A stretch of 64,000 nt of DNA from Desulfobacterales bacterium (GCA_963677545.2 CAXXKH010000048.1:11048-75047), one strand, 5' to 3'. Positions 24,747 through 46,743 are shown, counted from the stretch's first letter. Program-made: numbers and translations. The notes: a model not told the origin generated them from the letters alone.

Positions 24747-25364
24747 TTATCCAATCATCACCAGCCCGGCGAGCCACGACATGGATTCGCCGTCACCGGT
24801 CGTTTTCATGCCGCCGAACTCGGACGGCCATCCGCATTTTTTCATGAGGTCAAGCACATCGATGCCGAAACCGGACATGGACGGTCGGGCATGTTCCGGG
24901 TGGCGGCAGAGTCCGCCGGACAGCCTGCGGCATTCGGAATGCTCCCGGCAGAAAATGCCTTTGCAGGACCCGCCCGCAAAAGCCCTTGAATCCGTATATC
25001 CCATGCCGACGGCGTAGGCCTCGATGCCGGAAGTCAATTCGTGTAGAAACCGTCCCAAGTCCTGTCTTTCAGCCGAGAAAAGCGCCGACAGGGGGACCAC
25101 CAGACGAACAGCCACGGCCCATGGCAGCTGTTTTTGAAGCTCCCTGAAACCAGAAGGACCCGATACCTGGGGTGGACAGCTATGCGAAAAACCGTAGCTC
25201 GGGCAGGCGGCGCACAATTTTGCAAATTTCTCTTCCACCAGGATATCAGAAGCTGCAATTGCACGGGCGTCGCTTGCGCCTTCTGAGAATGCAAACCTTA
25301 CGATATCGTAAAGGTGGAACGATGGGATAGTATCGTCTGTTTTCGTTTCTTGAATAATGGTCAT
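24747..25364 (-). CDS. DUF2284 family Cys-rich metal-binding protein
   Basis: CAACPSYG..SCPP, AGGSCK..FC....C, CRHP..ARPSMSGFGIDV. Confidence 0.85.
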   Translation of the reverse strand: MTIIQETKTDDTIPSFHLYDIVRFAFSEGASDARAIAASDILVEEKFAKLCAACPSYGFSHSCPPQVSGPSGFRELQKQLPWAVAVRLVVPLSALFSAERQDLGRFLHELTSGIEAYAVGMGYTDSRAFAGGSCKGIFCREHSECRRLSGGLCRHPEHARPSMSGFGIDVLDLMKKCGWPSEFGGMKTTGDGESMSWLAGLVMIG

Positions 25365-25381
25365 CACTGTATATTCTTTAA

Positions 25382-27211
25382 TCAAATTTGGATGCTGATG
25401 CCCAGCACCCAGGTCAAGGGCGGCGCCAGAAGGCCGTCAGCCCAGTAGTAGGTCTCATCCGTAAGGTTTTCGATCTCGCTGAAAACACTGAACCGACCGA
25501 AAGACTGTTCGGCCCTGAGATCCACCAGGATATAGTCCGGAACGGATCGTGTATTGCTCCTGTTTCGGTAGACCTCGGAGGAATATTTCCCGCCTGCCAC
25601 CAGGGAGAGGCTCGTCGTCGGCTGCCAGTAGATATCCAGATCAACAATATGTTCCGCTTTGCCCGGCAGAGTCAGCCCGGTATCCCGGTCTTCAGCTTTC
25701 ATATAAGTGTAGGACGATTTGATCTTGAATGTTTTTTGCAGCTGCCAGCTCACGGCGACATCACCCCCGACATAACGCACATTCCCGAAATTATGGTATT
25801 CCCCCATACCGTCATCCGCGGTGATATAGGTAATACGGTCCATGAGCTTGTTATAGAAAAAAGAGAAGCTGAGGGACAGGTCGGGATGGGGGATAGTAAA
25901 AAGCGAGAGGCTCATATTTTCAGCCTGTTCCATGTCGAGGTCCGGGTTCGGACGTGTGGAGCTGGTTTCGTTATAACGCTGGTAAAATGACGGCAGATTG
26001 TCGGTGCGACCATATGCGGCGGCAACACGCCACTTCTCCTTTTTATACACCACTTTTACTTCCGGATTCAGACTGTTATCGAAACTGGAGTGGTAGTTTC
26101 CCCGGAGTCCGGCTGATAGAGTCAGGGGATACCGGGAAAAGGTCCAGGATTGGGTGGCAAACAGGGAAATTGAATGCTCCGCCTGGTCTTCGAATCCGGT
26201 ACCCATGGCCCGGTCCCAGGTGAATGAAATTCCGGCGTCGAGATCCTCTTTGCCGGTGATATTGAGGGCGCCGGTAATATCCTGGCCGAACTTATAAACT
26301 TTCAAGGTTTTATCAAGCTCCCTGCTTGGGTCCGTATTGTGCCGGTATCCGTCATTGTAGTGGGTGCTGCTTGCGAAGTCTAGAATGTTCGCCTGGAGTG
26401 CATAAACGGTGCTTCGAGTCTCTTTCCGGGAATAAGGTGTCGGGTAATCCGGCAGGCCGCTGGAACCCCGTTCGTCCCGCAAATAATCGACGGAAAAGAG
26501 GACGGGGGAGTTCCCTTCCGGCGTATAGCTCAATTTCACTCCGGCCTGACTGCGTTCCTTGTCGTTGTTTATTTTGTAGCCGTCGGAGGATTCATATCCG
26601 CCGTTCACGCCGATGATAAACCGACCAGCGGCAACATTTACGGACGCCGCTGCATCCCGGGTGCCATAATTGCCGCCATAGACCTTGGCATTTCCGGAGA
26701 AACGTCGAAGCGTCCGGGTGGTAATAAGGATAACCCCGCCGGCGGCGTCCTGTCCATAGACAAGCCCACCCTTTCCCCGAAGCACCTCGATGGTTTCAAC
26801 ATCATCCGGGGAAACGAAATCCCAGTTGATGCCCCCATGGCTGGAGGTGGGGTCGTTGATGGGGCGGCCGTCCACGAAGACCTTCACTTTAGTAGACCCG
26901 TGAATACTCACGGAACTGTCGCCGGCCTTGACACCAGGCACGTTATTCAGGACGTCCCCGATTTTCAGGGCCTTCACGTCGCGGATTTCTTGCGCGGTCA
27001 GAACGATGGTGTCCCCCTCATCGGCGGCATATGCCGCAAGGGGAATTATCAGAGTAAACGTGAGGAGCAGTAAAATTGTGAAAATGGCAACACAGCCAAT
27101 TTCAAAACGTCCTATTTTGACAAATTTCCAGTCGGTCGATCCGCCTTGGGCTTGGTCCCGATTTTGGCGGGAAAAATGTTTTGAAAATGGCTCAGCAGGT
27201 TTTTCTTCCAT
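25382..27211 (-). CDS. TonB-dependent receptor (plug + barrel) with in-frame repeat insertion in its signal peptide
   Basis: VLNNVPGV, VDGRPIN, IEVLRG...YG..AAGGVI plug motifs; NPDL; beta-barrel-like C-terminus. Confidence 0.88.
   Translation of the reverse strand: MEEKPAEPFSKHFSRQNRDQAQGGSTDWKFVKIGRFEIGCVAIFTILLLLTFTLIIPLAAYAADEGDTIVLTAQEIRDVKALKIGDVLNNVPGVKAGDSSVSIHGSTKVKVFVDGRPINDPTSSHGGINWDFVSPDDVETIEVLRGKGGLVYGQDAAGGVILITTRTLRRFSGNAKVYGGNYGTRDAAASVNVAAGRFIIGVNGGYESSDGYKINNDKERSQAGVKLSYTPEGNSPVLFSVDYLRDERGSSGLPDYPTPYSRKETRSTVYALQANILDFASSTHYNDGYRHNTDPSRELDKTLKVYKFGQDITGALNITGKEDLDAGISFTWDRAMGTGFEDQAEHSISLFATQSWTFSRYPLTLSAGLRGNYHSSFDNSLNPEVKVVYKKEKWRVAAAYGRTDNLPSFYQRYNETSSTRPNPDLDMEQAENMSLSLFTIPHPDLSLSFSFFYNKLMDRITYITADDGMGEYHNFGNVRYVGGDVAVSWQLQKTFKIKSSYTYMKAEDRDTGLTLPGKAEHIVDLDIYWQPTTSLSLVAGGKYSSEVYRNRSNTRSVPDYILVDLRAEQSFGRFSVFSEIENLTDETYYWADGLLAPPLTWVLGISIQI
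27094..27192. repeat. Miniature inverted-repeat element, copy B (99 bp), in frame within TonB receptor 5' end
   Basis: AGCCAATTTCAAAACG...TGTTTTGAAAATGGCT; 99 bp = 33 codons with no stop on the - strand. Confidence 0.88.
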
Positions 27212-27269
27212 ATAATGTCTGCTTTCTTGCGAAGTGTTCCGGTTTTATGAGTGTCCTCGATATTTATTT

Positions 27270-27611
27270 CAAAGGTGACGCCGGATCGAACCACATCAGA
27301 GATTCGCTCAGATTGACCACCTCTCCGACAACAATGATGGCCGGTGGTTTGACGCCTACCATGCGGGCTTTTTAAACGATGTTCCCAGATTGCCGATCAC
27401 CACGACTTGTCTGTGGGTGGTTCCCTATCGGATAAGGGCAACGGGGGTTTCGGCCGGTTTCCAATGGCCGTCAGATTCCGTATGATTCGGGAAGCTTTTT
27501 CACCCCCATGAAAATGACCTGGGACGATTCAATGCATTTCAGCCCTTTGACGGTGATCAATCCCGGATTGCCGGGACCGGCCCCCACGAGATAGACTTTG
27601 CCACGGTTCAT
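27270..27611 (-). pseudogene. Uroporphyrinogen-III C-methyltransferase (CobA/CysG-A) remnant
   Basis: [23 protein letters not shown] joined to VIFMGV...TPVALIR*GTT...PPAIIVVGEVV; large internal deletion, stops and frameshifts. Confidence 0.8.
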
Positions 27612-30600
27612 GTAATCTTTTCTCCTTCATCGGTCGCCTCTTCGATATCCCCCTCCACAGAAAGGAACGCATCCCGGAGTTTTTCCTCCATGTCGGGATC
27701 GGCGTTCCACATCCCCCGGCTGATGGCCTCCAGGAGTTTATCGAGTATATTGTGCATGGCATAGGGATTGACCTCTTTCATCCACTCTTGCATTTCCCTA
27801 TTCAGAGGCACCTTTTCGGCAAACCGCCGGTACATCCAGTCATCCACCACATTCGCCGTGGCATCCCAGCCAAGGATGATGTCCATGGCCTTTGAAATGT
27901 CTCCCGCGCCTTTGTAGCCGTGGCGTTTGAGGCCTTCCAGCCAGGTCGGATTGAGAAGACGGGAGCGGAAGACATGCCGGGCTTCTTCGGTGGTGGTGCG
28001 GACCTTCACCTGGTCGGGGTCCGCCGAATCCCCCGACAGGGAGAAGGGGCGTTTGCCCTGAACCGCGTGAACCGCCGTGATGAGGCCGCCGTGGTAGTTA
28101 TAGAAATCAGTACAGGCCATCATATCCTTTTCGCGGGTGTCCTCGTTTTTCACCGTGACCGACATGCGGGAGAGGGTGCGGCGAAAGTGCTTCTCTGCGG
28201 CCTGCCCGAATGTGTTCCGGCCGTAGGCATAGGAAGACCACTGAATGTACATGTTTCCCAGATCGTCGGTGGTCTCCCAGGCCTTGGATTCCACGAGTTG
28301 CGCCACCCCGGCGCCGTAGCTTCCCGGTGGCGATCCGAAGATGCGGAAGGTAGCCTGGCGGAAAGCATCGTCTTCATTCAGACCGTCATTTTTCAGATCC
28401 CGCATGTCCCGGAATACATGACGGCGGATGAAATTGGTTTCGGGTTTTTCTTCCAGCATCGCCACCATTTGTACTGCCCGGTCGATGAGGTCCATCAGGA
28501 GGGGAAAGGCGTCCCGGAAGATACCGGAGACCCGCGGGGTAACGTCGATACGGGGTCTTCCCAGCTCCGCGGCGGGAATAATCTCGACCCCCCGGACATT
28601 GCCGGAGCCTTTCTGCCATATCGGTTTGGCTCCCAGGAGATAAAGTGTTTCCGCCACGTCGTCCCCCTTGGAGCGCATGGTGGGGCTGGCCCAGAGAATC
28701 AGTCCCACATTGTCAGGATAACTTCCGTGTTCCGAAAGATACCGTTCGATCAGAGCATCCCCCAGCTTTTTTCCCACCTCCCAGGCTGCCGGCGTCGGAA
28801 TTTTCTGGGGATCCACGGAGAAAAAATTCCTTCCGGTGGGAAGAATATGGGCCTGGCCCCGGCTGGGGGCGCCGGAGGGGCCGGGCCGGACGAAACGACC
28901 GTCCAGGGCGGAGAGACAGGCGGCTTGCTCTTCCACGGTTTGCTGAAGCCTGTGGACCAGATCATCCTCGATAAAGGTAAGGGCCGCTGTGCAGTCCGGG
29001 TCGGTTTTTCCCAGGTGACGCTGCTGTACCGCCGCCACCGGATTTTCTTCCGGTGGTGTTAGCAGCAGATCCGAGACCATGGCCTCGCAGAGGGTGTGGG
29101 CTCTTTCAAGCATCTGACCCGCAGTCGTTGTTGTCGATGCTTCGACGATACGACCCCGGTTTTCCGAAAGGGCGTGAACATCATGCCCCATGGTTTTCAC
29201 CACGGCCCCCCGCAGGGAGGGGATATCCCCGTTTGCCAGCCGCGTCATCTGCACCACGGTCCGTGCCATAGACTCCCCCGCGGGTGCACGCCCCAGAATG
29301 TGCAGCCCGTCAGAGATCATGGTGTCGCCGATGTCGCTCAAATAGTCGTGGAGGGTTTCGATGAAGGATTCCGGATCCGCCAGGGCGGCCTCTTTTTCAA
29401 GTTCCAGGTCCTGGACAATTTCGGCCTTCTCCGCCGCCTCCCAGATCATCCTGATCAGAAGCTCCCGTTTGCCCTGGTCCTGGGTAAGGGCTTCCCGGTA
29501 TTCCTGGAGGCGGTTTTCCACCTCGGCCAGGTCTTCGTACAGGCCCGCATTGGTGAGGGGCGGCGGCATGTGGTCGATGATGCAGGCGAAGGAGCGCCGT
29601 TTGGCCTGGGTCCCTTCGCCGGGATCGTTGATGATGTAGGGGTAGATATTGGGGAGTTCCATGATGGCCAGGTCCGGATAACATTCCGGACCGAGGCCCA
29701 CGGCCTTTCCCGGAAGCCATTCCAGGCTGCCGTGCTTGCCCACATGGATCACGGCATCCGCCCCGAACACATCCCGGATCCACCGGTAGTGGGCGAGATA
29801 ATGGTGGGGAGGCGACAGGTGCTGGTCATGGTAGAGCTTATCCAGCTGTTCGAAATAGCCCCGGGGGGGCTGAATGGTGATGAAGAGATTGCCGTTCAGA
29901 AGTCCGGGAAAGAGAAGACGGCCCTCGTGCACGAAGAGATCGCCGGGCATTTCGCCCCAATCTTCTTTCATTTTCTTTTGGATCGTTTCCGGAAGTTCTT
30001 CTTCCCATGGTTCGTACTCCTCCGCCTCCGCGGTCGCCCGGGTCCTTTCGGCCATCTGCTCGGGAAGGAGCCAGCGTCGGTCCGTGGTCATGCACGCCAG
30101 TATCGCATGGGCCAGATCATCGCCGCTTTCATACAGTCCGTCCACACGATACCCCTTTTCGGACATGACCCGGACGAGATCCGCCACGCTGGCAAAGGAG
30201 TCCAGCCCCGAAGCACAGCCGATGCGATCATTCCGGGGAGGATAGTGATGAAAGATGATGGCGATTTTCTTTTCGACGTTCCGTTTCCGCGAAAGGGCAG
30301 CCCAGTTAAGGGCCAGCCGGACCATTTTCTCCATCCGTTCCGGAATGGGAACATACCGGTTCACCGCCGCTCCGGTGACCGGGTCCATGGAGACGCACTG
30401 CTTGGATGCCACCGGCACCGAGATAATGACGCCGTCCAGCTCCGGCTGGGCCACGGAGATGGTGATATCCACATTATTCAGTCCCTGGTCGCTCTCCTCC
30501 CACTCTTCAATGCTTCTTCCGGTGGAAATAGCCTGGATCACCGGCACCCTCAACTTTTCAAGCAGCCCCTTGTACTCCTTAGCCGCGGCCGCCAGGCTGA

Positions 30601-31408
30601 ACATTACCGGGTTGAGCAGTACGTCAATGACCGGTTTGCCGTCTTCCATGAAAAACCGCTCCACCACATAGTCGGCGCCCCGGTTGCCCAGCAGAGTGTC
30701 TTTGAAACGCATGTGGAACACACAAATGACGTTGGCGCCCTGCCGTTCAACTTCCCGGACCATGGCGTCGATATGGTCCTTGTTATTGCTGGTCCAGAAA
30801 TTCTGGTAGAACCAGATCCCCACCGTGGGCTTGTCACGCGAAAGACGGCCGCGGTAAGCATCGGGATCTTCGATAAAACCGTGATCCGGGTGGTAGAGCC
30901 CTTCGTAGGGCGGTTTGACCGGCGGCTTCGGAAGTATTGGACCATCAAGAACACGGTGGTAAAAATATATGAGGAGATTTTTCAGGTTTTCCACGCCACC
31001 GTAGCGGTAGTAGCGGCTCAGGATCTGCCAGGTATCGTCCGCGAGGCCGTCGGAGTGCTGTTCCACGAACCGCATGGATTCCGGGTTGCTGCCGGTGGGC
31101 TGGATATGGAAATAGGGGCATGTTTCGTTCCGGTTGCGTTTTTCCGCAAGGGCCGCAATCAGTGCCTCCCACGCGGGGCAGGACTGGCTCCCGGCCATGA
31201 GGGTAACCACCAGCACATCCGCGGCAAGGGCGCAGGCCACGAACGCGGCCTGGCTTCCCGGGTTCTCTTCCAGCTGGGTGCGGGTTCGGGCATAAATCGT
31301 GAGGGGGGAGACGTCCTCCGTAAAGAGACGGGCCGCTTCGCTCAGATTCGGGATTTCGTTCGATGTAACGCTGAAATAGACAAGCTTCATTTTCATCTCT
31401 TCTCCCAT
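27608..31408 (-). CDS. cobN: CobN/magnesium-chelatase-H family large subunit
   Basis: [50 protein letters not shown]...HGYKGA. Confidence 0.93.
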
Positions 31409-31414
31409 GGCGCG

Positions 31415-32218
31415 CTACCGTTCCTCCGCGATCCGCTGATGAAGACTTTCAATGGGAATGAAATAGGGACAGTCATGGATGGCATCCGTCCTGACATCCA
31501 CGCGGATACGGAATATTCGCTCTAAAAGCACCGGGGTGATGATTGCCGACGGGGGGCCGGTCTCCACAATCCTTCCGTCGCTGAGAGCCGCGATGGTGTG
31601 GGCATACCGGGCGGCCTGGTTGAGGTCATGCAGCACCATCACCGTGGCGATGCCGAGACTGCGGTTCAGTTCCCGGACAAGTTCCAGCACCTCGAACTGG
31701 TAGCAGATATCCAGGAAGGTGGTGGGCTCGTCCAGGAGAAGGATCTCGGGCTTACGGGCCAGGGCCAGGGCCAGCCAGGCCCGTTGCCGTTCCCCGCCGG
31801 AGAGGGAGGACATCATGCGCTCCCGAAGGCCGGTGAGCCGGGTTCGGGAAAGGGCTTCGTCCACGATACCCCAGTCCCCTTTTCTCATGCGACCGTTCCA
31901 TTTCAGATGGGGATTCCGACCGTACCCCACCAGGTCCCGAACCGTAAAATCCGGCGGCGCCGATGGGCTCTGGGGCAGAAAAGCCACCCGCCTCGCCAGG
32001 GCCTTTGGGGCGTACCGATGGACCGGTTTTCCGTCCAGGAGAACCGAACCGCCCCGGGGGCGCAAGGCGCCGGCAAGCCCCTTTAATATCGTCGATTTGC
32101 CGGAGCCGTTGGGACCGATAAGCACCAGGATTTCCCCGGGGTTCAGGGAAAGGGTCACGTCGTGAACCACCGGCGACTGTTTACCGTATCCCAACTGAAG
32201 ATGATCTGCCTTTAGCAT
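31415..32218 (-). CDS. ABC transporter ATP-binding protein (BtuD/FepC type)
   Basis: GPNGSGKST, LSGGERQR, LLLDEPT, VLHDLNQA. Confidence 0.95.
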   Translation of the reverse strand: MLKADHLQLGYGKQSPVVHDVTLSLNPGEILVLIGPNGSGKSTILKGLAGALRPRGGSVLLDGKPVHRYAPKALARRVAFLPQSPSAPPDFTVRDLVGYGRNPHLKWNGRMRKGDWGIVDEALSRTRLTGLRERMMSSLSGGERQRAWLALALARKPEILLLDEPTTFLDICYQFEVLELVRELNRSLGIATVMVLHDLNQAARYAHTIAALSDGRIVETGPPSAIITPVLLERIFRIRVDVRTDAIHDCPYFIPIESLHQRIAEER

Positions 32219-32229
32219 GAGATAGACTC

Positions 32230-33228
32230 CTAATGCTGCATCGCTTTGCTTCGCAGCAGATACAGAAAGAACGGCGCACCCAGAAGCGCCATGATGATCC
32301 CCACCGGCACCTCCACCGGATCGAGAGCCACCCGGGATATCGTGTCGCAGACCATCACCAGGGCGGCGCCCGAGAGCGCACTGGCCGGAAGCAGGTACCG
32401 GTAGTCCGACCCGATGAGAAGCCGGGTGATATGGGGGACGATGAGACCCACAAATCCCAGGAGACCCGCCACACTCACTGCACTGCCGGCCAGCAGGGCG
32501 GAAAGGGCGACAAAAAATAGTCGGGTACGCTCCACGTGCAGTCCCAGCCCCTGGGCCATTTCATCCCCCAGCATGAGAATATTGAGCCTGCGGGCGGAAA
32601 GACTCGCTAGAAAGAAACCGAACACAGTGTATGGCGCGATGATGACGAGATGCTTCCATGTCCTGGCCGAAAGCCCCCCTACCATGTATCCGATTACCGA
32701 GTGGACCCGGTCCGGAAAGAAAATCATCAGCCCCGTGATCATGGCGCCGAGAAACGAGGAGACCGCCACCCCCGCCAGGATGAGACGATAAGGCCGGACT
32801 CCCTGTTGCCAGGCCAGCAGATAGACCAGCATGGTGGTGACCAGGGCGCCGCCGAAGGCCACCGGTGGCAGCAGGTAATATATGCCGGGGTACAGGATCA
32901 GAATAATGACACCCGCCAGACCGGCGCCGGCGGACACGCCGATGATGTTGGGGGCGGCCAGGGGATTTCGCATGATTCCCTGGAGCAGACACCCGGAAAG
33001 AGAGAGACAGACACCGACACAGCCCGCCACCAGGGTCCGGGGGAGCCGTATATTCACGACGATCTGGTAATCCGTCCCCCTTTCCGGCCCCAGAAGGGTG
33101 GCCAGAATCTCGGGAATGGAGAGCTTCAGCGACCCCAGGCCCAGGCTGAAGATAAATCCCAGGACACAGGTAAGGCCCAGCAGGAGCAGCACCAGAATGC
33201 GTTTTCTCCTTCGTCCTTCTGCGTTCAT
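32230..33228 (-). CDS. ABC transporter permease (BtuC/FecCD type)
   Basis: IRLPR, RNPLA.P..IGV..GA, GFVGLIVPH, PVGI...LGAPFF. Confidence 0.95.
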   Translation of the reverse strand: MNAEGRRRKRILVLLLLGLTCVLGFIFSLGLGSLKLSIPEILATLLGPERGTDYQIVVNIRLPRTLVAGCVGVCLSLSGCLLQGIMRNPLAAPNIIGVSAGAGLAGVIILILYPGIYYLLPPVAFGGALVTTMLVYLLAWQQGVRPYRLILAGVAVSSFLGAMITGLMIFFPDRVHSVIGYMVGGLSARTWKHLVIIAPYTVFGFFLASLSARRLNILMLGDEMAQGLGLHVERTRLFFVALSALLAGSAVSVAGLLGFVGLIVPHITRLLIGSDYRYLLPASALSGAALVMVCDTISRVALDPVEVPVGIIMALLGAPFFLYLLRSKAMQH

Positions 33229-33230
33229 TG

Positions 33231-34211
33231 CTATTTCCCCCTATATAAAAGCGCCGCCAGATACCGAAGGGCCTCAGGGAATTCGTCATTCGGCTTGTAG
33301 AGAAAATATTCCTTGGGAAGTACGTGGAACCGGCCGTTCCGAATCGCCTGGAGAGTGGACCAGGCAGCGTTGGTTTCGTACTCCTTTCGAAGCCGGTCCC
33401 GGCACTCCGCCACATCGCCCATGGTGTTGAGAAGGATGATGTCCGGATCGAGTTGAACGATTTTCTCAAGGCTGAAGTCCACCCGGGTTTTATCCCTCAG
33501 TCGGTACCGGTCCGCAATGACGTTTTCAGCCCCCAGCAGAGAGAGCATCACACCAGCCTGGGAGCCGGGCAGTTCGCAGGAAATCGAATTGGATGTGGTG
33601 AAAATCACCAGCACCCGGGGGGGCGTTCGTCCGGCACAACCCTGAATAATCCCGTTTACTTCCGTCGCCATATTTTCAAGATCGGTTTTTACCTGACCCT
33701 GAGTCCCGTTTATTCTGGCAAAAAGATCGAGGATGTGCCTGTAGTCGTGGTAATTCACATAATTGAAGTAAGCGTAGGCAATATCGTTCTGTTCCAGGAT
33801 TGGAATCATGGCCCGGAAATTTCCCACATCCGAGGAGATCACCAGGTCCGGCTCGAGGGCGATTATCTTTTCCACATTGGGATTGTTGAAAGAGCCCACC
33901 ACTTCGGCTTTCCGGGCCCGGGCGGGCACACGAAGGTCTCCCGCGCAACGGCCCACCACCTCCCCGCCCGTCTGGTCCCACAGGTCCAGAAGGGAAGTGA
34001 GCAGCACCACGGTGCGTTTCGGATGCTTTGGAAGTACCGAGAGACTCCCATCCGGCAGCCTGCAGCTAACAGTTGCGGAGGTTTCCGCCGCAATGAGGGA
34101 TTTCGGTACATTTCGAACGTCTACATTTTTCGAATCACCATTACATGCCCAAAGAGAGAGAAGCATGAAAAAGGTCAAAAAAGCAAAGCGAAACAATGCC
34201 GAACAAAACAT
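33231..34211 (-). CDS. ABC transporter substrate-binding lipoprotein
   Basis: Lipobox LWAC; PNVEKIIALEPDLVI, SLEKIVQLDPDII, AIRNGRF. Confidence 0.9.
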   Translation of the reverse strand: MFCSALFRFAFLTFFMLLSLWACNGDSKNVDVRNVPKSLIAAETSATVSCRLPDGSLSVLPKHPKRTVVLLTSLLDLWDQTGGEVVGRCAGDLRVPARARKAEVVGSFNNPNVEKIIALEPDLVISSDVGNFRAMIPILEQNDIAYAYFNYVNYHDYRHILDLFARINGTQGQVKTDLENMATEVNGIIQGCAGRTPPRVLVIFTTSNSISCELPGSQAGVMLSLLGAENVIADRYRLRDKTRVDFSLEKIVQLDPDIILLNTMGDVAECRDRLRKEYETNAAWSTLQAIRNGRFHVLPKEYFLYKPNDEFPEALRYLAALLYRGK

Positions 34212-34213
34212 CT

Positions 34214-34999
34214 CTACGATTCCTTCCCCACCAGGGCCGCGCCGACAGCACCGTTGAACTGGGGATGATCGGGCACATGGATATCCGCCATCAGCGCGTC
34301 TTCCAGGGCTTCCACAATACCCGCGTTAAGCCCGCCACCCCCGGTCAGCAGAATTTCCGGCGAAACACCGGCCTTCCTGGCCATGCCGGCGATGCGGTTC
34401 GCCAGCGACCGGTGAATCCCCGCGGCGATATCCTCCCGTTTCTTCTTTCGCGCCACCAGGGATATTACTTCCGATTCGGCGAACACGACACAGGTACTGT
34501 TAATAGTCAAGGGCCTCGCCGAAGTCAATGACAAGGGGCCCAGATCTTCGATATTCAGTTCCAGCACCCGGGCCAGGGATTCGAGGAAACGCCCCGTGCC
34601 GGCGGCGCACTTGTCGTTCATGGCGAAATTCAATACATCGTGATGCCCGTCAAGCGTGATAACCTTGCTGTCCTGCCCACCGATATCGATAACCGTCTGG
34701 ACCGCCACGCCTTCCGGTGCGGACCACCGGGCGCCCCGGGCGTGGGCCTTGATTTCGGTAACGGTATCGTGGGCGGTTTCGATGCTTCGCCGGCTGTAGC
34801 CCGTAGCGGTAATACGGCGAATCTCTTCCGGATTGACGCCGTTTTTCTCGGCTATGTCGGCGGTCAGCTTCTTCGATGTCCCGTCTGCATCGATGCCGGT
34901 GGGTTTTTTATCGAAGCCGATCAACCGTTCGGCATCGTCCATAATGGCCACCTTGATATACGTGGAACCGGCATCGATGCCCGTAAAATAAGAACTCAT
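34214..34999 (-). CDS. ATP-dependent [4Fe-4S] activase (HgdC/BcrAD/DCCP-reductase, ASKHA family)
   Basis: GIDAGST, TGY.R, DIGGQDSK, MNDKCAAGTGRFLE, STCVVFAESEVIS. Confidence 0.93.
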   Translation of the reverse strand: MSSYFTGIDAGSTYIKVAIMDDAERLIGFDKKPTGIDADGTSKKLTADIAEKNGVNPEEIRRITATGYSRRSIETAHDTVTEIKAHARGARWSAPEGVAVQTVIDIGGQDSKVITLDGHHDVLNFAMNDKCAAGTGRFLESLARVLELNIEDLGPLSLTSARPLTINSTCVVFAESEVISLVARKKKREDIAAGIHRSLANRIAGMARKAGVSPEILLTGGGGLNAGIVEALEDALMADIHVPDHPQFNGAVGAALVGKES

Positions 35000-36309
35000 A
35001 ATTCCTCCGATCGTGCTTTTCTTTTTCTGACCCCCAGCATCTCGATGAACGCCTCGATACGCGTTCGCAGTTGTTCCACATCTTCGGGATTGTAATCCGT
35101 TTCGATGCGGAGGAGGGGAACATTTATCTCTTTCAGGTTTTTTTCCATCCGGTGAACTTCAAAATCATATATTACGCATCCCTTGAGTACGTGGTAGAGC
35201 ACACCGTCCGCGGCATATTCTTTCGCCATCCGGCGGATCAGGAATAACCGGTCGTCATTGGGGGCAAAGGAGGGACACACGCAGGGCGCCAGGTATCTGG
35301 AGGCAATGCCCGCCATTTGATCCCCCAGGCTTTTTTCCGTATGCCCCACCGGATCATAGAGGTACCGATCTCCGGCACAAGACTCGTCAAACACCACAAC
35401 CCCGCCCATCTCCTCCACCAGGGTGGGAATTTTCAGGTTGGGAAAAATTGCGGGGCTTCCCGCAATCAGCACCCTCGGCCTGTTTTCACCACAAATGGAA
35501 TGCTCCCGGTGTACATCAGCTTCGAGAGTTTCGTTCAGCCGGGCAAGAGCTCCGGACCAGTCCGGCAAAGCGGCATAGGCATAGGAATTGATGACTGCCG
35601 TGGTCTGTCGACCCCAGATCACGGGTCTGCCGTCTTTCCGAATCGAAAGCAACCGTCTGATTTCGGACTGGCAGTGGGCGGATTGCGCCGTGGCCGCGGA
35701 GAGTCTCCCGGAAGTAATCCGGTTCTTTCCCCGGCCGTTTCCGGCGTATGCTTCCACCCTGGATTTCAGAGCATATACCTGCTCCATCCACATACGACGG
35801 GAGGCATTCGAATCCTTGACGTGGGGTGTTTCCAGCAGCCAGACTTCCTTGAAGGCCGACAGTTCCTCCCCGAGCTTCCGCTTGGCATCGCAGGTGGTGG
35901 GAACGATGACCACATCGCAAAGGTCAAAGAGATCCAGCCCGCTTTGCATGGACAGTCCCATGGCCGACTTCACAAGCGGGCAGCCATCCCTCGGCACACG
36001 GTCTTCACCGAGTTGCGAGGAATCGTAGCATCCAGCGCACAGACGAATAGGGACGGCGCCGGCAGCATAAATAAGCTCTTCGGGAACCACCATGCAGTAC
36101 ACCCCTATGACGGGTTTTCCCCGGTTTTCTTCACCCAGTACCGACTCGAGATCGTTTCGTACAAACACCGACTCCATAATGTCGTAGAAATAGTCCAGCT
36201 CTCCGGGTGAATCCGGTATTTCCCGAAGCTGCGCCAATTCGCCGGCAGCCTGACGGGAAATATTTCTTACCAACCGTTTTTCTTTTTTTCTTATCGATTT
36301 TTCATTCAT
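34996..36309 (-). CDS. 2-hydroxyacyl-CoA dehydratase (HGD-D) family protein, double-cubane-cluster (DCCP)-like
   Basis: GVYC..PEEL, RLC, DGCPLVKS, TTCDAKRK, DESC, CVCPSF, KGC..Y, IETDY..ED.EQL.TRIEAF.E; single gene next to an activase. Confidence 0.85.
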   Translation of the reverse strand: MNEKSIRKKEKRLVRNISRQAAGELAQLREIPDSPGELDYFYDIMESVFVRNDLESVLGEENRGKPVIGVYCMVVPEELIYAAGAVPIRLCAGCYDSSQLGEDRVPRDGCPLVKSAMGLSMQSGLDLFDLCDVVIVPTTCDAKRKLGEELSAFKEVWLLETPHVKDSNASRRMWMEQVYALKSRVEAYAGNGRGKNRITSGRLSAATAQSAHCQSEIRRLLSIRKDGRPVIWGRQTTAVINSYAYAALPDWSGALARLNETLEADVHREHSICGENRPRVLIAGSPAIFPNLKIPTLVEEMGGVVVFDESCAGDRYLYDPVGHTEKSLGDQMAGIASRYLAPCVCPSFAPNDDRLFLIRRMAKEYAADGVLYHVLKGCVIYDFEVHRMEKNLKEINVPLLRIETDYNPEDVEQLRTRIEAFIEMLGVRKRKARSEEL

Positions 36310-36327
36310 AATGATGCTCGATTTTTT

Positions 36328-37281
36328 TCATGATTGTTCCTCCGTATTATTGATGGAAAGGGATGTGATTCGATTCTTGAAAAACCGCTTCGTGGAAGAC
36401 CGGTAAATGGTTATGCCGAGGTAAGACGCCGAAAGCGCGTCGGGCTCGGGACAGTTTTCGACACACTTCAGGCAGAGGGTGCAGTCGGGAAAAGTGACAT
36501 CCTTCCGTCCGCGGGAACGACAGACCTCTTCGATATCCACGGGACAGACGTTGTAGCAGATTTCGCACCGAGTGCAGTTTTCGTCGTTTTTCTTAAGTTT
36601 CAGAAAGCTTATCTTTCGATACCAGGAGAGAATCAGCCCCAGGGGGCAGAGGGTGCACCAGAACCGACGTTTGGCAAAGGCGAACAGAAATGCGATTCCC
36701 GAAAAGGTCAGGCCCAGAGAGGACATGACGATGGTGGTGGCGTTTTTGAAATTGACGGCTACCCGGTCCGGGTTCCCCACAAGAAGCGGCAGAATATACT
36801 TCCCGGGGCAAAGCTGGCAATAGGGGATGTTCAGCCCCAGGGCTACGCAGGGGCACCCCACCGGAAACGCCGCCCAGATCGGCAGCAGCAGGGCGATGGA
36901 AAAAAAAGCCCACTTAACCCAGGAAAGGCCTTTTTTCAGCCCCGTGGAGAAACGGATGCCGCTGATCCCCAGCTTCTTTCTCACCCAGTCGAAAACATCC
37001 TGGAAAAGGCCCAGGGGGCAGATCCATCCGCACCAGGCCTTTCCCAGGACAATCACCAGGAGGGAGAAAAACAGGAGGCGTTGTGCAAACATCAGCATAC
37101 TCTCGGCGGTGAAAGTACCCAGCGTTCGCTGAAGGGTAAGCATGAAACAGGTGCCGGCCCGGGCCCGGACATAACAGCAGGAAAACGTCGGCAGGAAATA
37201 GCCGAAGTAGAGCCCCGCATAAGCGCCGAACAGCAGCACGATAAAAGCCGAAATCAGTATGGTCCAGCGAAGTTTCGTCAT
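36328..37281 (-). CDS. Membrane-bound 4Fe-4S binding protein (NapH/MauN/RdxA-like)
   Basis: WCGWICPLG, YCQLCP, FWCTLCPLG and two CxxCxxCxxxCP motifs; TM segments. Confidence 0.9.
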   Translation of the reverse strand: MTKLRWTILISAFIVLLFGAYAGLYFGYFLPTFSCCYVRARAGTCFMLTLQRTLGTFTAESMLMFAQRLLFFSLLVIVLGKAWCGWICPLGLFQDVFDWVRKKLGISGIRFSTGLKKGLSWVKWAFFSIALLLPIWAAFPVGCPCVALGLNIPYCQLCPGKYILPLLVGNPDRVAVNFKNATTIVMSSLGLTFSGIAFLFAFAKRRFWCTLCPLGLILSWYRKISFLKLKKNDENCTRCEICYNVCPVDIEEVCRSRGRKDVTFPDCTLCLKCVENCPEPDALSASYLGITIYRSSTKRFFKNRITSLSINNTEEQS

Positions 37282-37283
37282 AT

Positions 37284-38378
37284 TCAGATCTCTATCCTGT
37301 GGTTTTTAAAAACTGCCATTTGCCGCGTCTCCTGCCATCTCTTCCGGCGGGCATGACCCCATATGCCGAGGAGACACAACCCGCAACCGATAATGGCCCA
37401 GAAGACAAACCCGACGGTTTTACTCCGCCATTCCGGACGGTTTTTATGGACCTCCGTCGGCATGGTGGAAATATAGGTCCTCCCCGATGCCGAGTCCCGA
37501 TGGAACGTCACGTAGATATACCGCTGCCAGTCCGCGGCCAGGGCCCTGTCGTCGGTGGGAATAATTTCAAAGATGCCGCTTTCGTCGGTGACGGCACTCT
37601 TCCGCCACCCGGCCCCTTCGGCAATAATATCAACCTGCGCTCCGGCAAGGGGAGCACCTTTGAACTTCACCATCATTTCATAACTGCGATGGGAGGTCTG
37701 GCTGCCGCCTCCTGACCTTGATTTCGCGGTGTTGATCACCGGGCCGATTTCGAGGGGCATACGCGCGGGATCGTCAAAAAAAACCACCGACACGCTTCCC
37801 ACGTTCCCGCCGCTCTTGCGATGAGGGATCAGCTGTTTGGCGCAGAAGTGAACCGGCTCAAAAACGCCATCGCCGTCCATATCGAGCTTTTCGGCAACGG
37901 CATGGGCCCCCAGTAAATATCTTCCGGTCAAATTTTCGTCCGGGGGAAGAGTGACAATATCTCCCCCCCCGGTAATCTCCTTCAAGGTATGCACCACGCC
38001 GTCGGGATCCCTTAAAAATACGGATGCCGTTTCGGCTATGGTTTCACCGAAGGAGTGAAAAGCACCGTCCGCCGCCATCACCTCCAGGGTCAACCGTTTC
38101 GGGTCCTGGTTAGCGGTCCTGCGAAGTTTCCTCTGTTTTCGAATCTCCCGCCAGGGAAGGGCTTCCGGGTTCGGATCGCTGATATATTTTTCCTGATCTA
38201 AAAGACGCCAGCAGCAGACCGGAACCGCATCCACCGTCCCGGCTGCTGCCGGCGTCAGGGGGGGACTCATCGCCAGGAAAAGTACCGGAAAGAATCGTAT
38301 CACGGTGAGTCTGTGTTTGATAAAAGACAAAATTTTCATACATAAATTCCTTCCAGTACAGTTCCAGACACGTAGCAT
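37284..38378 (-). CDS. Hypothetical exported protein with C-terminal membrane anchor (DUF4198-like C-terminal fold)
   Basis: Signal-like segment; PLEI.P, V.FKGAPLAGA.V, TDESG motifs; C-terminal TM helix; start may be 38339. Confidence 0.65.
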   Translation of the reverse strand: MLRVWNCTGRNLCMKILSFIKHRLTVIRFFPVLFLAMSPPLTPAAAGTVDAVPVCCWRLLDQEKYISDPNPEALPWREIRKQRKLRRTANQDPKRLTLEVMAADGAFHSFGETIAETASVFLRDPDGVVHTLKEITGGGDIVTLPPDENLTGRYLLGAHAVAEKLDMDGDGVFEPVHFCAKQLIPHRKSGGNVGSVSVVFFDDPARMPLEIGPVINTAKSRSGGGSQTSHRSYEMMVKFKGAPLAGAQVDIIAEGAGWRKSAVTDESGIFEIIPTDDRALAADWQRYIYVTFHRDSASGRTYISTMPTEVHKNRPEWRSKTVGFVFWAIIGCGLCLLGIWGHARRKRWQETRQMAVFKNHRIEI

Positions 38379-39161
38379 CTATCTTACCTCGAAAGTCAGG
38401 GAAGAAGTGAATGAGTACTCATCCGCCTCTTCCGGATCGGGATAAGGCGCCTTGTGGTTCGCTTTGAGAATCCAGGGGCCGGAGTGAAGAATCTTGATCT
38501 CTCCCAGCCCCTTGCTGTTGGTCCGGGTGCTGTAGGCCCAGTCGTCCTCCTGAGAAAACCCCACGTAGGTGGCGTTGACGTATTCTGCCACCGGCTTTCC
38601 CTTGAAGAGGAGCTTGAACTGGAAATAATCTCCTGCTTTCAGGTCAGCGGGATTGTCCAGAGGGATAAACTCCAAAGCGTCCCCCACTGGGGTTTCAAGA
38701 ACCTTGGTTCCGGAAGGACTTCCCACATTGAGGATCGCCTTACCATACATACCGATATATCGGGAAGATAAGACGTTCTTAAGGCCCTTCCGGGGCTGCT
38801 GCTTATACCCCTCGGTGGTTTTGGTGGAAAATCCCTCTTTGCGTTTCACCATGCCCAAGTAAGTACCCGGGGCGAGCCTCTTAGCGGACTCGTATTGGAA
38901 TTCGTTGACGGCATCGACGCCGATTCTCTCACCGGACGGATCGATGAGATAGATCTCCCCGAGCCGGTCGCCGCCCACGAGGATATCCCCCACGGGATTG
39001 TAGAAATGATGCCCCCATCCCACGGTAAACCTGGCGGTGGATTTTCCGGCGGGGGTATAGTCGTTTACATTGAGCCACATGTAGTGGGCCTGGGTTTCGA
39101 TGGAAAAAAAACAAATGCTGAAGAAAAATGCAGTGAAAACTACCTGTTTAAAAATACGCAT
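38379..39161 (-). CDS. DUF4198 family periplasmic protein (associated with Co/Ni uptake)
   Basis: Signal ending TQA-H; GWGH, LEFIPL.NP, LFKGKP, TNSKG, GPW. Confidence 0.85.
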   Translation of the reverse strand: MRIFKQVVFTAFFFSICFFSIETQAHYMWLNVNDYTPAGKSTARFTVGWGHHFYNPVGDILVGGDRLGEIYLIDPSGERIGVDAVNEFQYESAKRLAPGTYLGMVKRKEGFSTKTTEGYKQQPRKGLKNVLSSRYIGMYGKAILNVGSPSGTKVLETPVGDALEFIPLDNPADLKAGDYFQFKLLFKGKPVAEYVNATYVGFSQEDDWAYSTRTNSKGLGEIKILHSGPWILKANHKAPYPDPEEADEYSFTSSLTFEVR

Positions 39162-39183
39162 GAATATCCTCCTTTTTCATTGG

Positions 39184-41402
39184 TTACCAGTCGAGCTTTA
39201 GCTCAAGCAAAAAACTGCGTTCTCTTCCGATGGAATACTCGTAATACTCCTCATCGAATAGGTTCTCCACCGACAGAGAAACCCGTATTTTTTTAATATA
39301 CCGCGTCTCATAGGGAATATTGGCAATTGCTTTGGCTTCCCAGATCCAGACGGTTGAATCCGCTTTGTAGACATTCGGGATATCGGTGTTGTATTTGGTA
39401 TTATAAATACGGCCGGCATATCGCCCCGCCAGGTTGAACGACAACCAGTCGTAAACATAATTTGCACCGATATTGATGGTTTCATCCGGCATGCCGGTGA
39501 CGCTTTTACCCACCATTCCGGGGTCATGATCCTGTCTGGTAATTTCGGAATCATTGTATGTGTAATTGCCCCAGATTGTGAAAGAATCAAAAGGGATAAT
39601 GGATGCACTCAGCTCGACGCCCTGAATGCGAACCTCTCCGGCATTGTCTTTTCTGGAATCCCCGGCGTCATCATTGTAAGAGTAAATGAGATTCTCAATA
39701 TCGGAGTGAAACAACATGACCTCTGTTTTGACTTTTCTTCCGAGAAAGTATTTAACAACGCCAATTTCGTAATTGAGAATGGTTTCGGAATCCAGATCCG
39801 GGTTGGAGTAAACCATCCGGCTGCTGGACTCATAAGTACGGTAAAGATCGTAAATGGTTGGAGATCGGAAGGCCTTTCCCACGGAGCCTTTCAAAATGGT
39901 CTCCTTGCTCAGGGTCCACACCAGGGATAATTTCGGGCTGACAGCGGAGTTATCCACATCGTCGAGTATCGTCGGATTTTCCGTGCTGCCGCTTTTCCCG
40001 TCGTATGCTTCCCAGAAATCCGCCCGAATCCCGGCATAGATAGTGAATTTGTCCTTGATCGCCTCTATTTCATCCTGGACATACAGGGCATAATACTGGT
40101 CCTTACCCAGTGTTAACTCCATTTTTCCCGATATTTTGCTGTCTTCGTCCTGATAATAAGCCACATCGAACTGACCCTGGTCGAAATCATTATATCTACC
40201 GTAAACACCGGTGGTGATATGATGCCGGCCGCCGATATCGAAATTCAACTGCAGGTCGGTAAAAAAGGTATCCGTATCGAATTCCTTGACATTGCCGCCG
40301 GCATCATAATACCCCTCGCCCGTTGCCGCCGAAGCCGTGGTGTACCACATATCCTCATGCTGGTAGCCGAATTTTCCGAGAAAGGTGAGGGGGCCGAAGA
40401 TTTCCGTATATGTCGTCATGTAAGATGAATTTGTTATATCGCGGGGACTCGACAGATAGTACTTTTCGGCAATGGATACGTACTCCCCGTTCCCGACATC
40501 GACCCTTCCATCGAAAACCGGATTTCCGTCTGCATCCGTTATGTATGTATGGGGGGGGGCATATTCATAGAAAGTTGATTCCACCTGGCCTTCCAGTCGA
40601 ATGGACCCGGTTTCCGACAGTTCATATTTCGACGTAAAGCTTATCCCCCATTGATCTTCGTTTCGGTCTCCTGTATCACCGACGATCCAGGCGGCTTGAT
40701 CGGTCCGGGTCTTCATGAAAAAACCGCCCCTGAGATCACCGTCTCCGGATCTTATGGTTCTCTGGACATAACTTCTGGGATAACCGAATAACTCTTCATC
40801 CCTTTCAAACCAAGCCGAAAGCTGAATTTTTCTCCGACCCTGTTCCCGATATAGCCGCTGTAGGAGAGATTGTCGTCACTTCCGAGACGTGTCTTGAGCC
40901 CGGCCTCGAACTGATCGGGCATTTTCGTAATAACATTGATGGTTCCGCCCATGGCGTTACCGCCGTAAAGTGCCGAGGCAGGTCCCCGGACAATCTCAAT
41001 CCGCTCGACATTTTCGACGCCGACATTGTCCCATCTGTGACCGCCGTACCAGCCGCTGTTGAGCGGCATGCCGTTCAACATCAAGAGTGTGTGACTGGCG
41101 CTGGGAAGTCCCCTCAACTTTCCTTCAAAATACCCCGCCTCATACTGAAGAGCCTCGTCAAGCCTGTTGAACGTAAACGATTCCAGTTCTTCTTTTGTTA
41201 CCACCGATACGGCGGCGGGAGCGAGACCCATCTCCTTTTCGCTTCTTGTGGCCGTAACAATCAGTTCGTCCAGAAAAAAAGAATCCTTTATACTGCTCAA
41301 TTTTTTTGTTTCCGAAAATGTCTCCTGTGCGAAGCAGGTGAGCGGTGCTGCCAGCACACCTGCAACAATCAAAAAAAACAATCCTGCTAAAACCGTTTTC
41401 AT
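39184..41402 (-). pseudogene. TonB-dependent receptor split by one missing base at ~40808
   Basis: Plug ORF 40752-41402 and barrel ORF 39184-40716; adding one A to AAA 40807-40809 restores RLGFERDEELFGYPRSYV, collinear with paralog 42730-44916. Confidence 0.85.
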
Positions 41403-41553
41403 TTCGAGCCTCCATGCAATTCAAATACATGTGCGCCTCCTTACCAAAAAAACCCACGCCCGGAGGGGCGCAAGCATTCCGTTTTTAATCCTGTCAGTAC
41501 AATTGTTTATCAGCAAACGACCCTGTATCCCGAGGGGTTTACTTGAAAAATCA

Positions 41554-41722
41554 CAGGCAGGTCTTCTGACTCTCCCGCCTTTGCCGCCGCCTTCCCACCG
41601 CCTCCCGGGCGGCAGTGGCATATGTTGCAGCAAAGGTTCCCTGTATAAGGGCGGGATCACAGCGGCGGGTCCGCTCCCGATTCTCACGGGATTCCCTGTT
41701 GGGTCCTTCCGGACACCTGTGT
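41554..41722 (-). ncRNA. Cobalamin riboswitch 3
   Basis: - strand AGGGAATCCCGTGAGAATCGGGAGCGGACCCGCCGCTGT...GCCACTG...GGGAAGG...AGTCAGAAGACCTGCC; hairpin plus T-run near 41446-41470. Confidence 0.92.
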
Positions 41723-41874
41723 TTCAGTAAGAAAGACAGTTTATTCGAATTTCTCCGGCAACATCATTCCGGCCGCATTCGATTCATTAAATACTACTGG
41801 TGCTTTTTCCAGTTTTGAATATGTTGCCGACCACCTCCTTTCTACGACAAGCTCCGTTCCGGATCGTCTGAAAT

Positions 41875-41909
41875 AAAAAATCCCGGACCGAAGTAATTCG
41901 ATCCGGGAT
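41875..41909 (-). terminator. Attenuator terminator of riboswitch 4
   Basis: - strand ATCCCGGATCGAA..TTCGGTCCGGGAT-TTTTT. Confidence 0.82.
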
Positions 41910-41980
41910 GTCCCTTTTTTATCCGCAGATATTCGTCTGAAACACAACGCCGTCCGCGCAGTCGTGTCTCCTATATGTTT

Positions 41981-42132
41981 CAGGCAGGTCTTCTGACTTC
42001 CGGATCATCCTACCGGCTGCGCCTTCCCGACCTTTCGGCCAGTGACATCATGCAGCTTTCGTCCCCGATTACAGCGGCGGGCCCGTCCCCGATTCCCACG
42101 GAGTTCCCTATTAAGCTCTTTCGAGCGCCTTT
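41981..42132 (-). ncRNA. Cobalamin riboswitch 4
   Basis: - strand AGGGAACTCCGTGGGAATCGG...CCCGCCGCTGT...GGGAAGG...AGTCAGAAGACCTGCC; TTGACA-N16-TATAAT at 42179-42152 upstream. Confidence 0.93.
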
Positions 42133-42228
42133 AATACTAGTTGTTCCGACGATTATAAATGCCTTGGAGCGAATGTCAAGCGGAAAAATAAGAATAGTGA
42201 CACCGCCCGTATCGGGGCATAAAGTCGG

Positions 42229-45088: not shown

Positions 45089-45157
45089 TCCCTTTTTTAT
45101 CCGCAAATATCTACTTGAAACACAACGTTGTCCTCGCAACCGTGCTCTTATATATCT

Positions 45158-46691: not shown

Positions 46692-46743
46692 GATATCCAT
46701 TTGAAACACAACGCCGTCCGCGCAGTCGTGTTCGCTATGTGTT

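Follow-up and report, generated by a model that had tools for sequence, protein, structure and literature searches.

The stretch of DNA considered here comprises 64,000 nt of a Desulfobacterales genome (GCA_963677545.2, CAXXKH010000048.1:11048-75047; below referred to as the window, with positions counted from its first letter) and carries on its minus strand, from 42180 down to 24747, a 17.4-kb row of genes which lies behind one promoter and two tandem terminator-type cobalamin (B12) riboswitches and which consists of two separately conserved modules (Table 1). Module A (41402-34214) is made up of a TonB receptor, a DUF4198 protein, an anchored protein, a membrane polyferredoxin, a double-cubane cluster protein (DCCP) and an archerase, and module B (34211-24747) of a heme-type binding protein, a FecCD/ABC importer, a CobN-type chelatase, a dead cobA gene, a second TonB receptor and a DUF2284 protein. 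An earlier interpretation made from the sequence alone (the sequence-only reading) had placed eleven items in this row, had assumed B12 control and had joined the DCCP with a CobN lacking AAA+ partners into a pathway of import, reduction and dechelation. Open reading frame (ORF) calls and Pfam searches recovered all eleven items on the minus strand at the positions given, and B12 control was borne out by the two aptamers, both of which exceed the Rfam gathering threshold of 31.5 bits, span positions 1-189 of model RF00174 and are followed by terminator-like hairpins, behind a promoter match that is complete.

Table 1. Features of the minus-strand gene row, in the order of transcription (window positions)
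Feature	Position	Strand	Basis or remark
Sigma-70-type promoter-like site TTGACA-16-TATAAT	42152..42179	-	12/12 matches
Cobalamin riboswitch aptamer 1	41966..42147	-	RF00174, 108.1 bits
Terminator-like hairpin after aptamer 1	41909-41880	-	13-bp stem and T run
Cobalamin riboswitch aptamer 2	41539..41735	-	RF00174, 90.6 bits
Terminator-like hairpin after aptamer 2	41475-41452	-	10-bp stem and T run
TonB-dependent receptor 1 (Plug 40752-41402, barrel 39184-40716)	39184..41402	-	Pfam
DUF4198 soluble periplasmic metal-capture protein (predicted)	38379..39161	-	PF10670, 131.3 bits vs gathering 34
Exported 364-aa DUF4198-fold protein, C-terminal helix anchor	37284..38378	-	fold model, hydropathy
NapH-like four-helix membrane polyferredoxin, 2x[4Fe-4S] domain	36328..37281	-	Fer4_5, 56.6 bits vs Pfam cut-off 22
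Double-cubane cluster protein (DCCP; HGD-D)	34996..36309	-	PF06050, 294 bits
Archerase-type ATP-dependent reductase (BcrAD_BadFG activase)	34214..34999	-	193 bits, full length
Periplasmic binding protein (Peripla_BP_2)	33231..34211	-	IsdE 100.7 bits vs BtuF 42.5 bits
FecCD-type permease	32230..33228	-	321 bits
ABC ATPase	31415..32218	-	Pfam
CobN-type class I chelatase large subunit	27608..31408	-	PF02514, 1334 bits
cobA/SUMT-type tetrapyrrole methylase remnant	27264..27626	-	N- and C-terminal TP_methylase-like fragments, three frames
Dispersed repeat copy, ~105 nt, between CobN and receptor 2	27089..27195	.	>150 blastn matches in genome
TonB-dependent receptor 2	25382..27211	-	Pfam; true start probably downstream of 27211
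DUF2284 Cys-rich predicted metal-binding protein	24747..25385	-	111 bits; 4-nt overlap with receptor 2

From receptor 1 to the CobN gene the intergenic gaps range from -4 to 22 nt, whereby the archerase gene overlaps the DCCP gene by 4 nt and a gap of 2 nt separates the activase and binding-protein genes, at which the two modules meet. Between the CobN gene and receptor 2 a gap of 396 nt opens, in which the cobA remnant and a single copy of a dispersed repeat are situated. Matches to this repeat, showing 71-89% identity, were found on most contigs of the genome, and the copy in the window extends over the initial codons of the longest receptor 2 frame. Receptor 1, which is 47-50% identical to the receptor at 42730-44916, lies in two frames within the window sequence. 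An extra base after 40806 is carried by the contigs of sequencing runs X2 (depth 15.1/15.1) and X5 (2/2) and is lacking from the contig of the lowest-depth run X1 (0/4.44); as this base gives a single 739-aa frame, the split probably results from an assembly error or a polymorphism, and receptor 1 is probably not a pseudogene, given that other assemblies carry the restoring base.

The survey of module A conservation drew on 15 loci of genomes, on the paralogous C49 locus and, out of 473 confirmed metagenome loci, on the best 80; at 95% nucleotide identity these collapsed into 86 groups, the window excluded; for each neighbour, only groups with enough flank enter the denominator, and CobN was counted from 300 bits upwards, with the partial CobN gene ending locus L070 (180 bits) added by hand. 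Close relatives of the DCCP are rare, being present in 8 of 401 genomes of the phylum and in 5 of 81 relatives (E 1e-80 or better, this genome included). Where they occur, the polyferredoxin gene lies immediately upstream of the double-cubane gene in 65 of 69 groups and the archerase gene downstream in 56 of 59; a DsbD_2 membrane protein, with C109 and C146 invariant and C24 near-invariant, is encoded downstream in 29 of 52 groups and the anchored protein upstream in 30 of 54. Further neighbours are the TonB receptor (22/41 groups), DUF4198 (12/41), the FecCD permease (4/41) and CobN (2/41, or 3/41 counting the partial gene). The conserved partners of the DCCP are therefore, as these counts document, the membrane polyferredoxin, DUF4198-fold periplasmic proteins, the DsbD_2 protein and TonB receptors, and module A is a conserved and apparently undescribed metal-uptake module with an ATP-driven double-cubane reductase at its centre. 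All three CobN-adjacent groups belong to the closest clade (DCCP at least 58% identical), within which a FecCD importer and/or CobN adjoins the module in 4/4 well-flanked groups with varied gene orders, and the CobN and FecCD cases are confined to riboswitch-bearing loci of module A. In the window, the FecCD importer occupies the position held by DsbD_2 in other loci. The joining of DCCP and CobN that had been read from the window hence describes the closest clade, and as a general linkage it was rejected, the 3 of 41 DCCP groups being matched by none of 20 CobN loci in the reverse direction.

The same genome harbours a second copy of module A on contig C49 (L042, G000:C49:94000-113999), 52-55% identical to that of the window and composed of DUF4198, TonB receptor, a short anchored protein, polyferredoxin, DCCP, archerase and a 634-aa anchored-like protein. 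No riboswitch and no CobN were found with the C49 copy. Matches to the polyferredoxin of at least 80 bits occur at only these two places of the genome. A group II intron match lies at 19037-19310 of L042. Among the metagenome loci, a small anchored protein of ~176 aa recurs in ten loci of 35-40% identity (L079, L082, L088, L097, L108, L113 and others) and combines a low-complexity linker with a C-terminal Cys-rich motif, CGGCG..C..L..PRC. Three further loci (L063, L062, L069) carry secreted molybdopterin-oxidoreductase-like/TP_methylase fusion proteins and an amino-acid-permease-family gene upstream of the module, and TamA/TamB-like genes downstream of it.

Among solved structures, 6ENO and 7YYL, both of the Carboxydothermus double-cubane protein, are the top relatives of the DCCP, with E 1e-59 over residues 32-425. 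Its motif cysteines are arranged as C72-18-C91-18-C110-29-C140-170-C311-33-C345-32-C378 and correspond to the published motif CX19CX18-19CX29CX166-170CX32-34CX32C (PMC7317905); seven cysteines are invariant among 16 relatives. The first spacing of 18 matches that of the solved protein in the HMMER alignment, and C91, the cysteine that varies, appears to be the non-ligand cysteine of the motif. With 335.1 bits the protein scores just under the cut-off of 350 of NCBIfam NF040772 (cluster IV, FldB/C family). Taken from the sequence, the assignment of the window enzyme as a true seven-cysteine double-cubane type with its own archerase is thus supported. The double-cubane cluster was reported to possess a potential below those of dithionite and Ti(III) citrate, and in the solved complex the archerase is bound via the C-terminal helix and the N111 region of the DCCP.

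In the polyferredoxin, 16 cysteines are invariant across 27 sequences. Hydropathy and charge indicate four helices, whereby the positive-inside rule puts C35, C45, C155 and C158 outside and predicts C84, C88, C209 and C212 as well as the 2x[4Fe-4S] domain to lie inside. The protein scores 78.4 bits to the NapH family TIGR02163, under the cut-off of 213; a fold search returned no solved match at E 0.001 or better, and a PDB profile search matched generic 2x[4Fe-4S] domains only. A complex model of the DCCP with polyferredoxin residues 200-317 reached a score of 0.81 (best of three controls 0.00), a mark which, among solved complexes, 58 of 80 attained and, among mismatched pairs, 2 of 110, counts that hold only roughly because own alignments were used. 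The docking runs agree in at least 98% of contacts, with a partner pLDDT of at least 76. Within the modelled interface, the C236-C246 and C277 cluster motifs of the polyferredoxin face DCCP residues 318-342, which adjoin the ligands C311, C343 and C345, and the surface used is separate from the archerase-binding surface of the solved complex. The model supports a putative electron exchange between DCCP and polyferredoxin, though ferredoxin-domain complexes of related enzymes may have shaped the prediction.

Both periplasmic proteins of module A point to metal handling. The soluble DUF4198 protein scores 87 bits to Zcp (9MHI) and carries a histidine directly after the predicted signal peptide as well as the conserved GH motif. 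The anchored protein was modelled with a pLDDT of 83.8 and a helix at 316-359, and its best fold matches are Zcp (E 3e-9) and the nickel-bound IsDUF4198, with PF10670 reaching only 24 bits. DUF4198 proteins were described to bind Zn, Co, Ni and Cu via histidine sites and to have TonB receptors and NikR among their neighbours.

Module B is, judged by its gene content and distribution, a common B12-riboswitch unit of the phylum that combines a tetrapyrrole importer with a class I chelatase. At E 1e-150 or better, 59 of 401 genomes contain orthologues of its CobN, and 20 loci were fetched of 26 places with at least 45% identity (45-58%) in other genomes, the survey omitting G250, the second place in G017, G191, two in G354 and G313. 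FecCD/ABC genes lie at 16 of these 20 loci, a TonB receptor at 13, CcsA/ResB-like proteins at 10 and ChlI/ChlD, within 10 kb, at 9; a cobalamin riboswitch was found at 6 of the 7 loci scanned, and no double-cubane gene at any of the 20. In L047, the nearest relative with long flanks, ChlD and ChlI share one locus with both CobN and the DCCP module, the order being ResB-like, FecCD, ABC, CobN, anchored protein, polyferredoxin, DCCP, archerase, riboswitch, receptor, ChlD, ChlI. Comparative-genomics papers by Rodionov on B12 and Ni/Co uptake are said to have noted B12-regulated cobN/chlID and TonB receptors.

The sequence-only reading rightly stated that the window encodes neither ChlI/ChlD nor CobS/CobT; none of them matched on the whole contig. 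Extended to the genome, the search for partners gave a divided result, as ChlI (C11:308622-309611, 432 bits to TIGR02030) and a ChlD-like AAA-VWA gene (C11:309677-311493, split over two frames and truncated where the contig ends) were identified on contig C11, and CobS and CobT were not found in the genome, which is 93.6% complete. Because the genome thus holds ChlI and a ChlD-like gene, and ChlD/ChlI lie beside the orthologues at nine loci, the CobN is not an orphan, and a stand-alone CobN was rejected on the basis of the whole-genome searches and the locus survey. Downstream of the ChlD-like gene, the C11 locus (L044, G000:C11:296000-311493) encodes ChlI, ABC and ABC-2 proteins and a CobO-like protein. 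The genome also has CbiD, which belongs to the early-insertion route. A likeness to HmuS, from which dechelation had been argued, was not found either: the window CobN scores 785 bits to CobN (7c6o), 533 to ChlH and 364 to HmuS (9d26), exceeds with 975.7 bits the TIGR02257 cut-off of 822, and shows hydrophobic 19-residue windows above 1.6 starting only at residues 50-57 and none C-terminally, whereas HmuS/BtuS proteins were described to possess transmembrane segments at both ends. By sequence it is of the CobN type and not of the HmuS type, an assignment to the latter being rejected by the scores. The binding protein of module B, compared in the same manner, is nearer to the heme binder IsdE than to BtuF. 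In total, six CobN-family genes occur in the genome. Of these, three are found on contigs C37 and C6 (L013, L011, L014), namely a gene of the HmuS type on C37 (1165 bits to 9d26), which is followed by a TonB receptor and two membrane proteins, a gene leaning towards HmuS that neighbours a receptor and a FecR-like gene, and a gene of the ChlH type next to an ABC system of the peptide/nickel type.

The B12 link of module A extends beyond the window. Cobalamin riboswitches adjoin the module in L027, L029, L047, L050, L055 and L070, of which L027 and L070 derive from the same organism. No Rfam elements, riboswitches included, were found in 7 distant loci and none in 8 more. In L050 the genes behind the riboswitch encode, in this order, a receptor, the adenosyltransferase CobO, the anchored protein, the polyferredoxin, the DCCP, the archerase, DsbD_2, CbiB and an aminotransferase of the CobD type; in L055 a 356-aa gene lies between riboswitch and module A. 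TonB receptors behind such riboswitches were predicted to be cobalt-specific in a review.

The row is embedded in a dense B12-acquisition island: the window holds seven cobalamin riboswitches, and a short way upstream the contig adds a further two, one of them ahead of a CobN-family gene in two frames (C48:3542-6869; L045, C48:1-11100). The riboswitch at 52565-52746 (122 bits) heads a minus-strand row (47783-52746) of a NifH-like gene, two nitrogenase-component-1-like genes and a Peripla_BP_2 gene, the window containing here another B12-controlled, ATP-driven system for low-potential reduction. Behind the riboswitch at 46730-46909 (minus strand) no minus-strand ORF was found; a plus-strand TP_methylase-domain gene (45710-46582) with a signal-peptide-like N-terminus lies there instead. 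The riboswitch at 45143-45324 (minus strand) precedes the receptor at 42730-44916. On the plus strand, the region 10493-18654 contains two weaker riboswitch matches (38.7 and 36.9 bits), the first gene set comprising a 515-aa gene and a B12-binding radical SAM gene and the second a TonB receptor, a radical SAM gene and a binding protein.

Considering module architecture, conservation and regulation together, we tentatively favour, at a little under an even chance, the view that modules A and B are co-expressed supply lines for B12 salvage and not a reductase-dechelatase pair; the electron path, the metal and the substrates named in the following are those we infer. Upon B12 scarcity both modules would be expressed. 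The archerase would then charge the double-cubane cluster using ATP, and the ferredoxin domain of the polyferredoxin would dock on the DCCP, whereby electrons could pass from the 2x[4Fe-4S] domain via the cytoplasm-side cysteine quartet to the periplasm-side quartet and thus to the periplasmic face. There, the anchored and the soluble DUF4198 proteins would handle metal delivered by the receptor, and under B12 control this metal would be cobalt, set free when an inert form, Co(III) or chelated, is reduced. Module B would import a tetrapyrrole or corrinoid precursor, into which CobN together with the ChlI/ChlD encoded on C11 might insert cobalt. Taken on its own, the proposal that module A achieves an ATP-driven export of very-low-potential electrons through an iron-sulfur membrane wire, which frees inert periplasmic metal for uptake (cobalt where B12 riboswitches are present), is possible, with the balance leaning against it; in loci without riboswitch the metal may be another one than cobalt.

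Several observations weigh against the supply-line view and its mechanism, the heaviest being that the solved enzyme is built for a small substrate and that many loci carry no receptor or no riboswitch. Riboswitches were found in only 6 of the 39 scanned loci of module A. As TonB receptors were not seen in 19 of 41 well-flanked groups and loci of 35-45% identity contain polyferredoxin, DCCP, archerase and DsbD_2 only, uptake across the outer membrane is not universal. Cobalt in sulfidic habitats is expected as Co(II), which leaves the need for a very low-potential reduction unexplained. Secreted TP_methylase-like lipoproteins, for which genes lie near module A in 6 of the 80 metagenome loci and, within the window, at 45710-46582, hint that the ligand may be a tetrapyrrole instead of a free ion. 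That four polyferredoxin cysteines face the periplasm is predicted from hydropathy and charge alone, and the docking score states a model confidence and is not a measurement. Of the Zcp triad H29, H31 and H142, the H142 position is a serine in the soluble DUF4198 protein of the window, with the N-terminal part unaligned. The DCCP has moreover kept the N-terminal extension which narrows the substrate channel in the solved double-cubane enzyme; by analogy, this would suit an enzyme that turns over a small molecule at its cluster better than a pure electron relay. Finally, the presence of CobO in the L050 module would suit a reductase of cob(II) to cob(I) corrinoids equally well.

The latter observation leads to the alternative that DCCP and archerase are the missing cytoplasmic reductase of anaerobes which converts cob(II) to cob(I) corrinoids before adenosylation, the polyferredoxin serving merely as membrane electron donor. 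Riboswitch control, the succession of CobO, CbiB and a CobD-type gene in L050 and the CobO-like neighbour of ChlI/ChlD on C11 agree with such a role, as does the reported potential of the double-cubane cluster, and an ATP-driven reduction of corrinoid cobalt has precedent in the unrelated RACE class. This idea leaves the constant DUF4198-fold proteins, the DsbD_2 protein and the periplasm-side cysteine features roleless, however, CobO occurs in 1 of 41 groups and most loci of module A lack a riboswitch (33/39 scanned) and also a B12 gene, so that we regard it as unlikely, albeit not negligible.

A similarly unlikely explanation retains the core of the sequence-only reading, namely that DCCP and archerase act in the cytoplasm on a metallated tetrapyrrole brought in by the importer, reducing it so that a stand-alone CobN, by analogy to HmuS, can remove or exchange the metal. 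It draws on the tight row with only 2 nt between the activase and binding-protein genes, on the heme-type binding protein, on the adjacency of FecCD importer and/or CobN throughout the closest clade and on the reductant dependence of HmuS, whose dechelation was reported to involve a membrane fraction and NADH. Against these points stand the scores of the CobN, the presence of a true HmuS-type paralogue with its own receptor on C37, the membrane and periplasmic nature of the constant DCCP partners, the rarity of CobN among DCCP groups and the absence of DCCP from the 20 CobN loci, as well as ChlI/ChlD in the genome, beside the orthologues and even in the same locus in L047. Because ChlI/ChlD are encoded elsewhere and the DCCP-CobN linkage is not general, the dechelation pathway largely falls. 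What stands of the physiological context that had been foreseen for a DCCP-like enzyme is its embedding in a B12/cobalt-linked uptake system; a role as partner of a stand-alone dechelatase probably does not.

Less likely still would be a mer-type scheme in which module A imports a soft metal or metalloid compound and reduces it in the cytoplasm, B12 control being secondary in some lineages. The sequence of periplasmic binder, Cys-rich DsbD_2 permease (downstream in 29/52 groups) and cytoplasmic reductase corresponds to such a scheme, the N-terminal extension of the DCCP suits a small substrate, and a preprint by Haft and Gwadz ties double-cubane proteins to an importer and SelD. Yet the window lacks DsbD_2 and has the FecCD importer in its place, docking points to an electron exchange of the DCCP with the polyferredoxin, and DUF4198 proteins bind Ni, Co and Zn via histidines and not via thiolates. 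That module A is a B12-independent back-up of a B12-dependent process, repressed like metE and unrelated to cobalt or corrinoid uptake, would match the gene order of L055 and the reported riboswitch control of the B12-independent isozymes metE and nrdD, but is highly improbable given that TonB receptors, metal-capture proteins and importers are constant neighbours and that a B12-dependent counterpart is not evident.

The survey has consequences for both modules. Across ~86 related locus groups, the genes of one large double-cubane subfamily are nearly always accompanied by that of a dedicated membrane polyferredoxin and often by those of metal-capture proteins, of a membrane protein rich in Cys and of TonB receptors; in several lineages they stand under B12 riboswitches and beside corrinoid salvage genes. 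As papers on double-cubane proteins state their physiological substrate and partners to be unknown, this turns the question of DCCP function into assays, namely of cobalt/corrinoid uptake, of ATP-dependent polyferredoxin reduction and of cob(I)alamin formation. If the electron-export proposal held true, it would provide the first physiological role for double-cubane proteins, and module A would be the first ATP-energised electron export serving nutrient acquisition. For module B, the idea of a stand-alone dechelatase is corrected, as the CobN belongs to a widespread riboswitch-controlled importer-plus-chelatase unit, normally with ChlD/ChlI, whose substrate is unexplained in organisms that already have an early cobalt-insertion route. 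The component proteins come from known families, and units of the kind of module B are known as well. A constant pairing of double-cubane reductase with membrane polyferredoxin and metal-uptake proteins, partly under B12 riboswitches, was not found in the searchable literature, and no prior description of a gene of the double-cubane/2-hydroxyacyl-CoA-dehydratase type under a B12 riboswitch or beside TonB receptors was found in the literature searched, its supplements not being visible; those of a flavinylation study, the Haft and Gwadz preprint, the Zcp paper and a signal-strapping paper may list such clusters.

Compared with known systems, the window enzyme shares fold family, seven-cysteine motif and an adjacent ATP-dependent archerase-type reductase with DCCP/DCCP-R of Carboxydothermus hydrogenoformans (6ENO, 7YYL), for which no physiological substrate or partner is known in the accessible literature; it differs by its constant membrane polyferredoxin partner, by the uptake proteins and, in some lineages, by the B12 riboswitch. 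The SAO locus, a bioinformatic inference of the Haft and Gwadz preprint, likewise places a double-cubane protein and activase beside an importer of metal compounds, but differs by its description in the ABC family, a MerB-like enzyme and selenoproteins; the terms NapH and DsbD do not occur in the main text of this preprint, nor does "TonB-dependent" in its accessible text. The polyferredoxin has Fer4_5, four helices, CX3CP-type motifs and a C-terminal 2x[4Fe-4S] domain in common with membrane iron-sulfur proteins of the NapH/NosR/PceC type, for which electron transfer across the membrane was proposed. It is distinguished by an extra invariant cysteine quartet on its predicted outer face, no FMN-binding domain was found in it, and its partner would be a cytoplasmic ATP-driven reductase instead of a respiratory reductase or a quinol pool. 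Zcp (Neisseria) and IsDUF4198 (Ideonella) serve periplasmic metal capture beside TonB receptors, as found in the window, where the soluble protein is of the same family and the anchored one of the same fold; here control is by B12 instead of Zur or NikR, the third Zcp ligand is not conserved and one copy is membrane-anchored beside a redox protein. In relation to the class I cobalt chelatases (CobN-ChlI-ChlD, CobNST), the window CobN is full-length and its genome encodes ChlI and ChlD, as is found beside the orthologues, but the organism has the early-insertion route (CbiD) and its CobN is linked to a TonB receptor, CcsA/ResB-like proteins and a heme-type importer, from which linkage it follows that the CobN probably acts on an imported substrate. 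The HmuS/BtuS heme dechelatases of Bacteroidota (PMC6460266) belong to the same superfamily, are receptor-linked and depend on a reductant, membrane fraction and NADH being needed by HmuS for the conversion of heme to protoporphyrin; their counterpart in this genome is the gene on C37 and not the CobN of the window.

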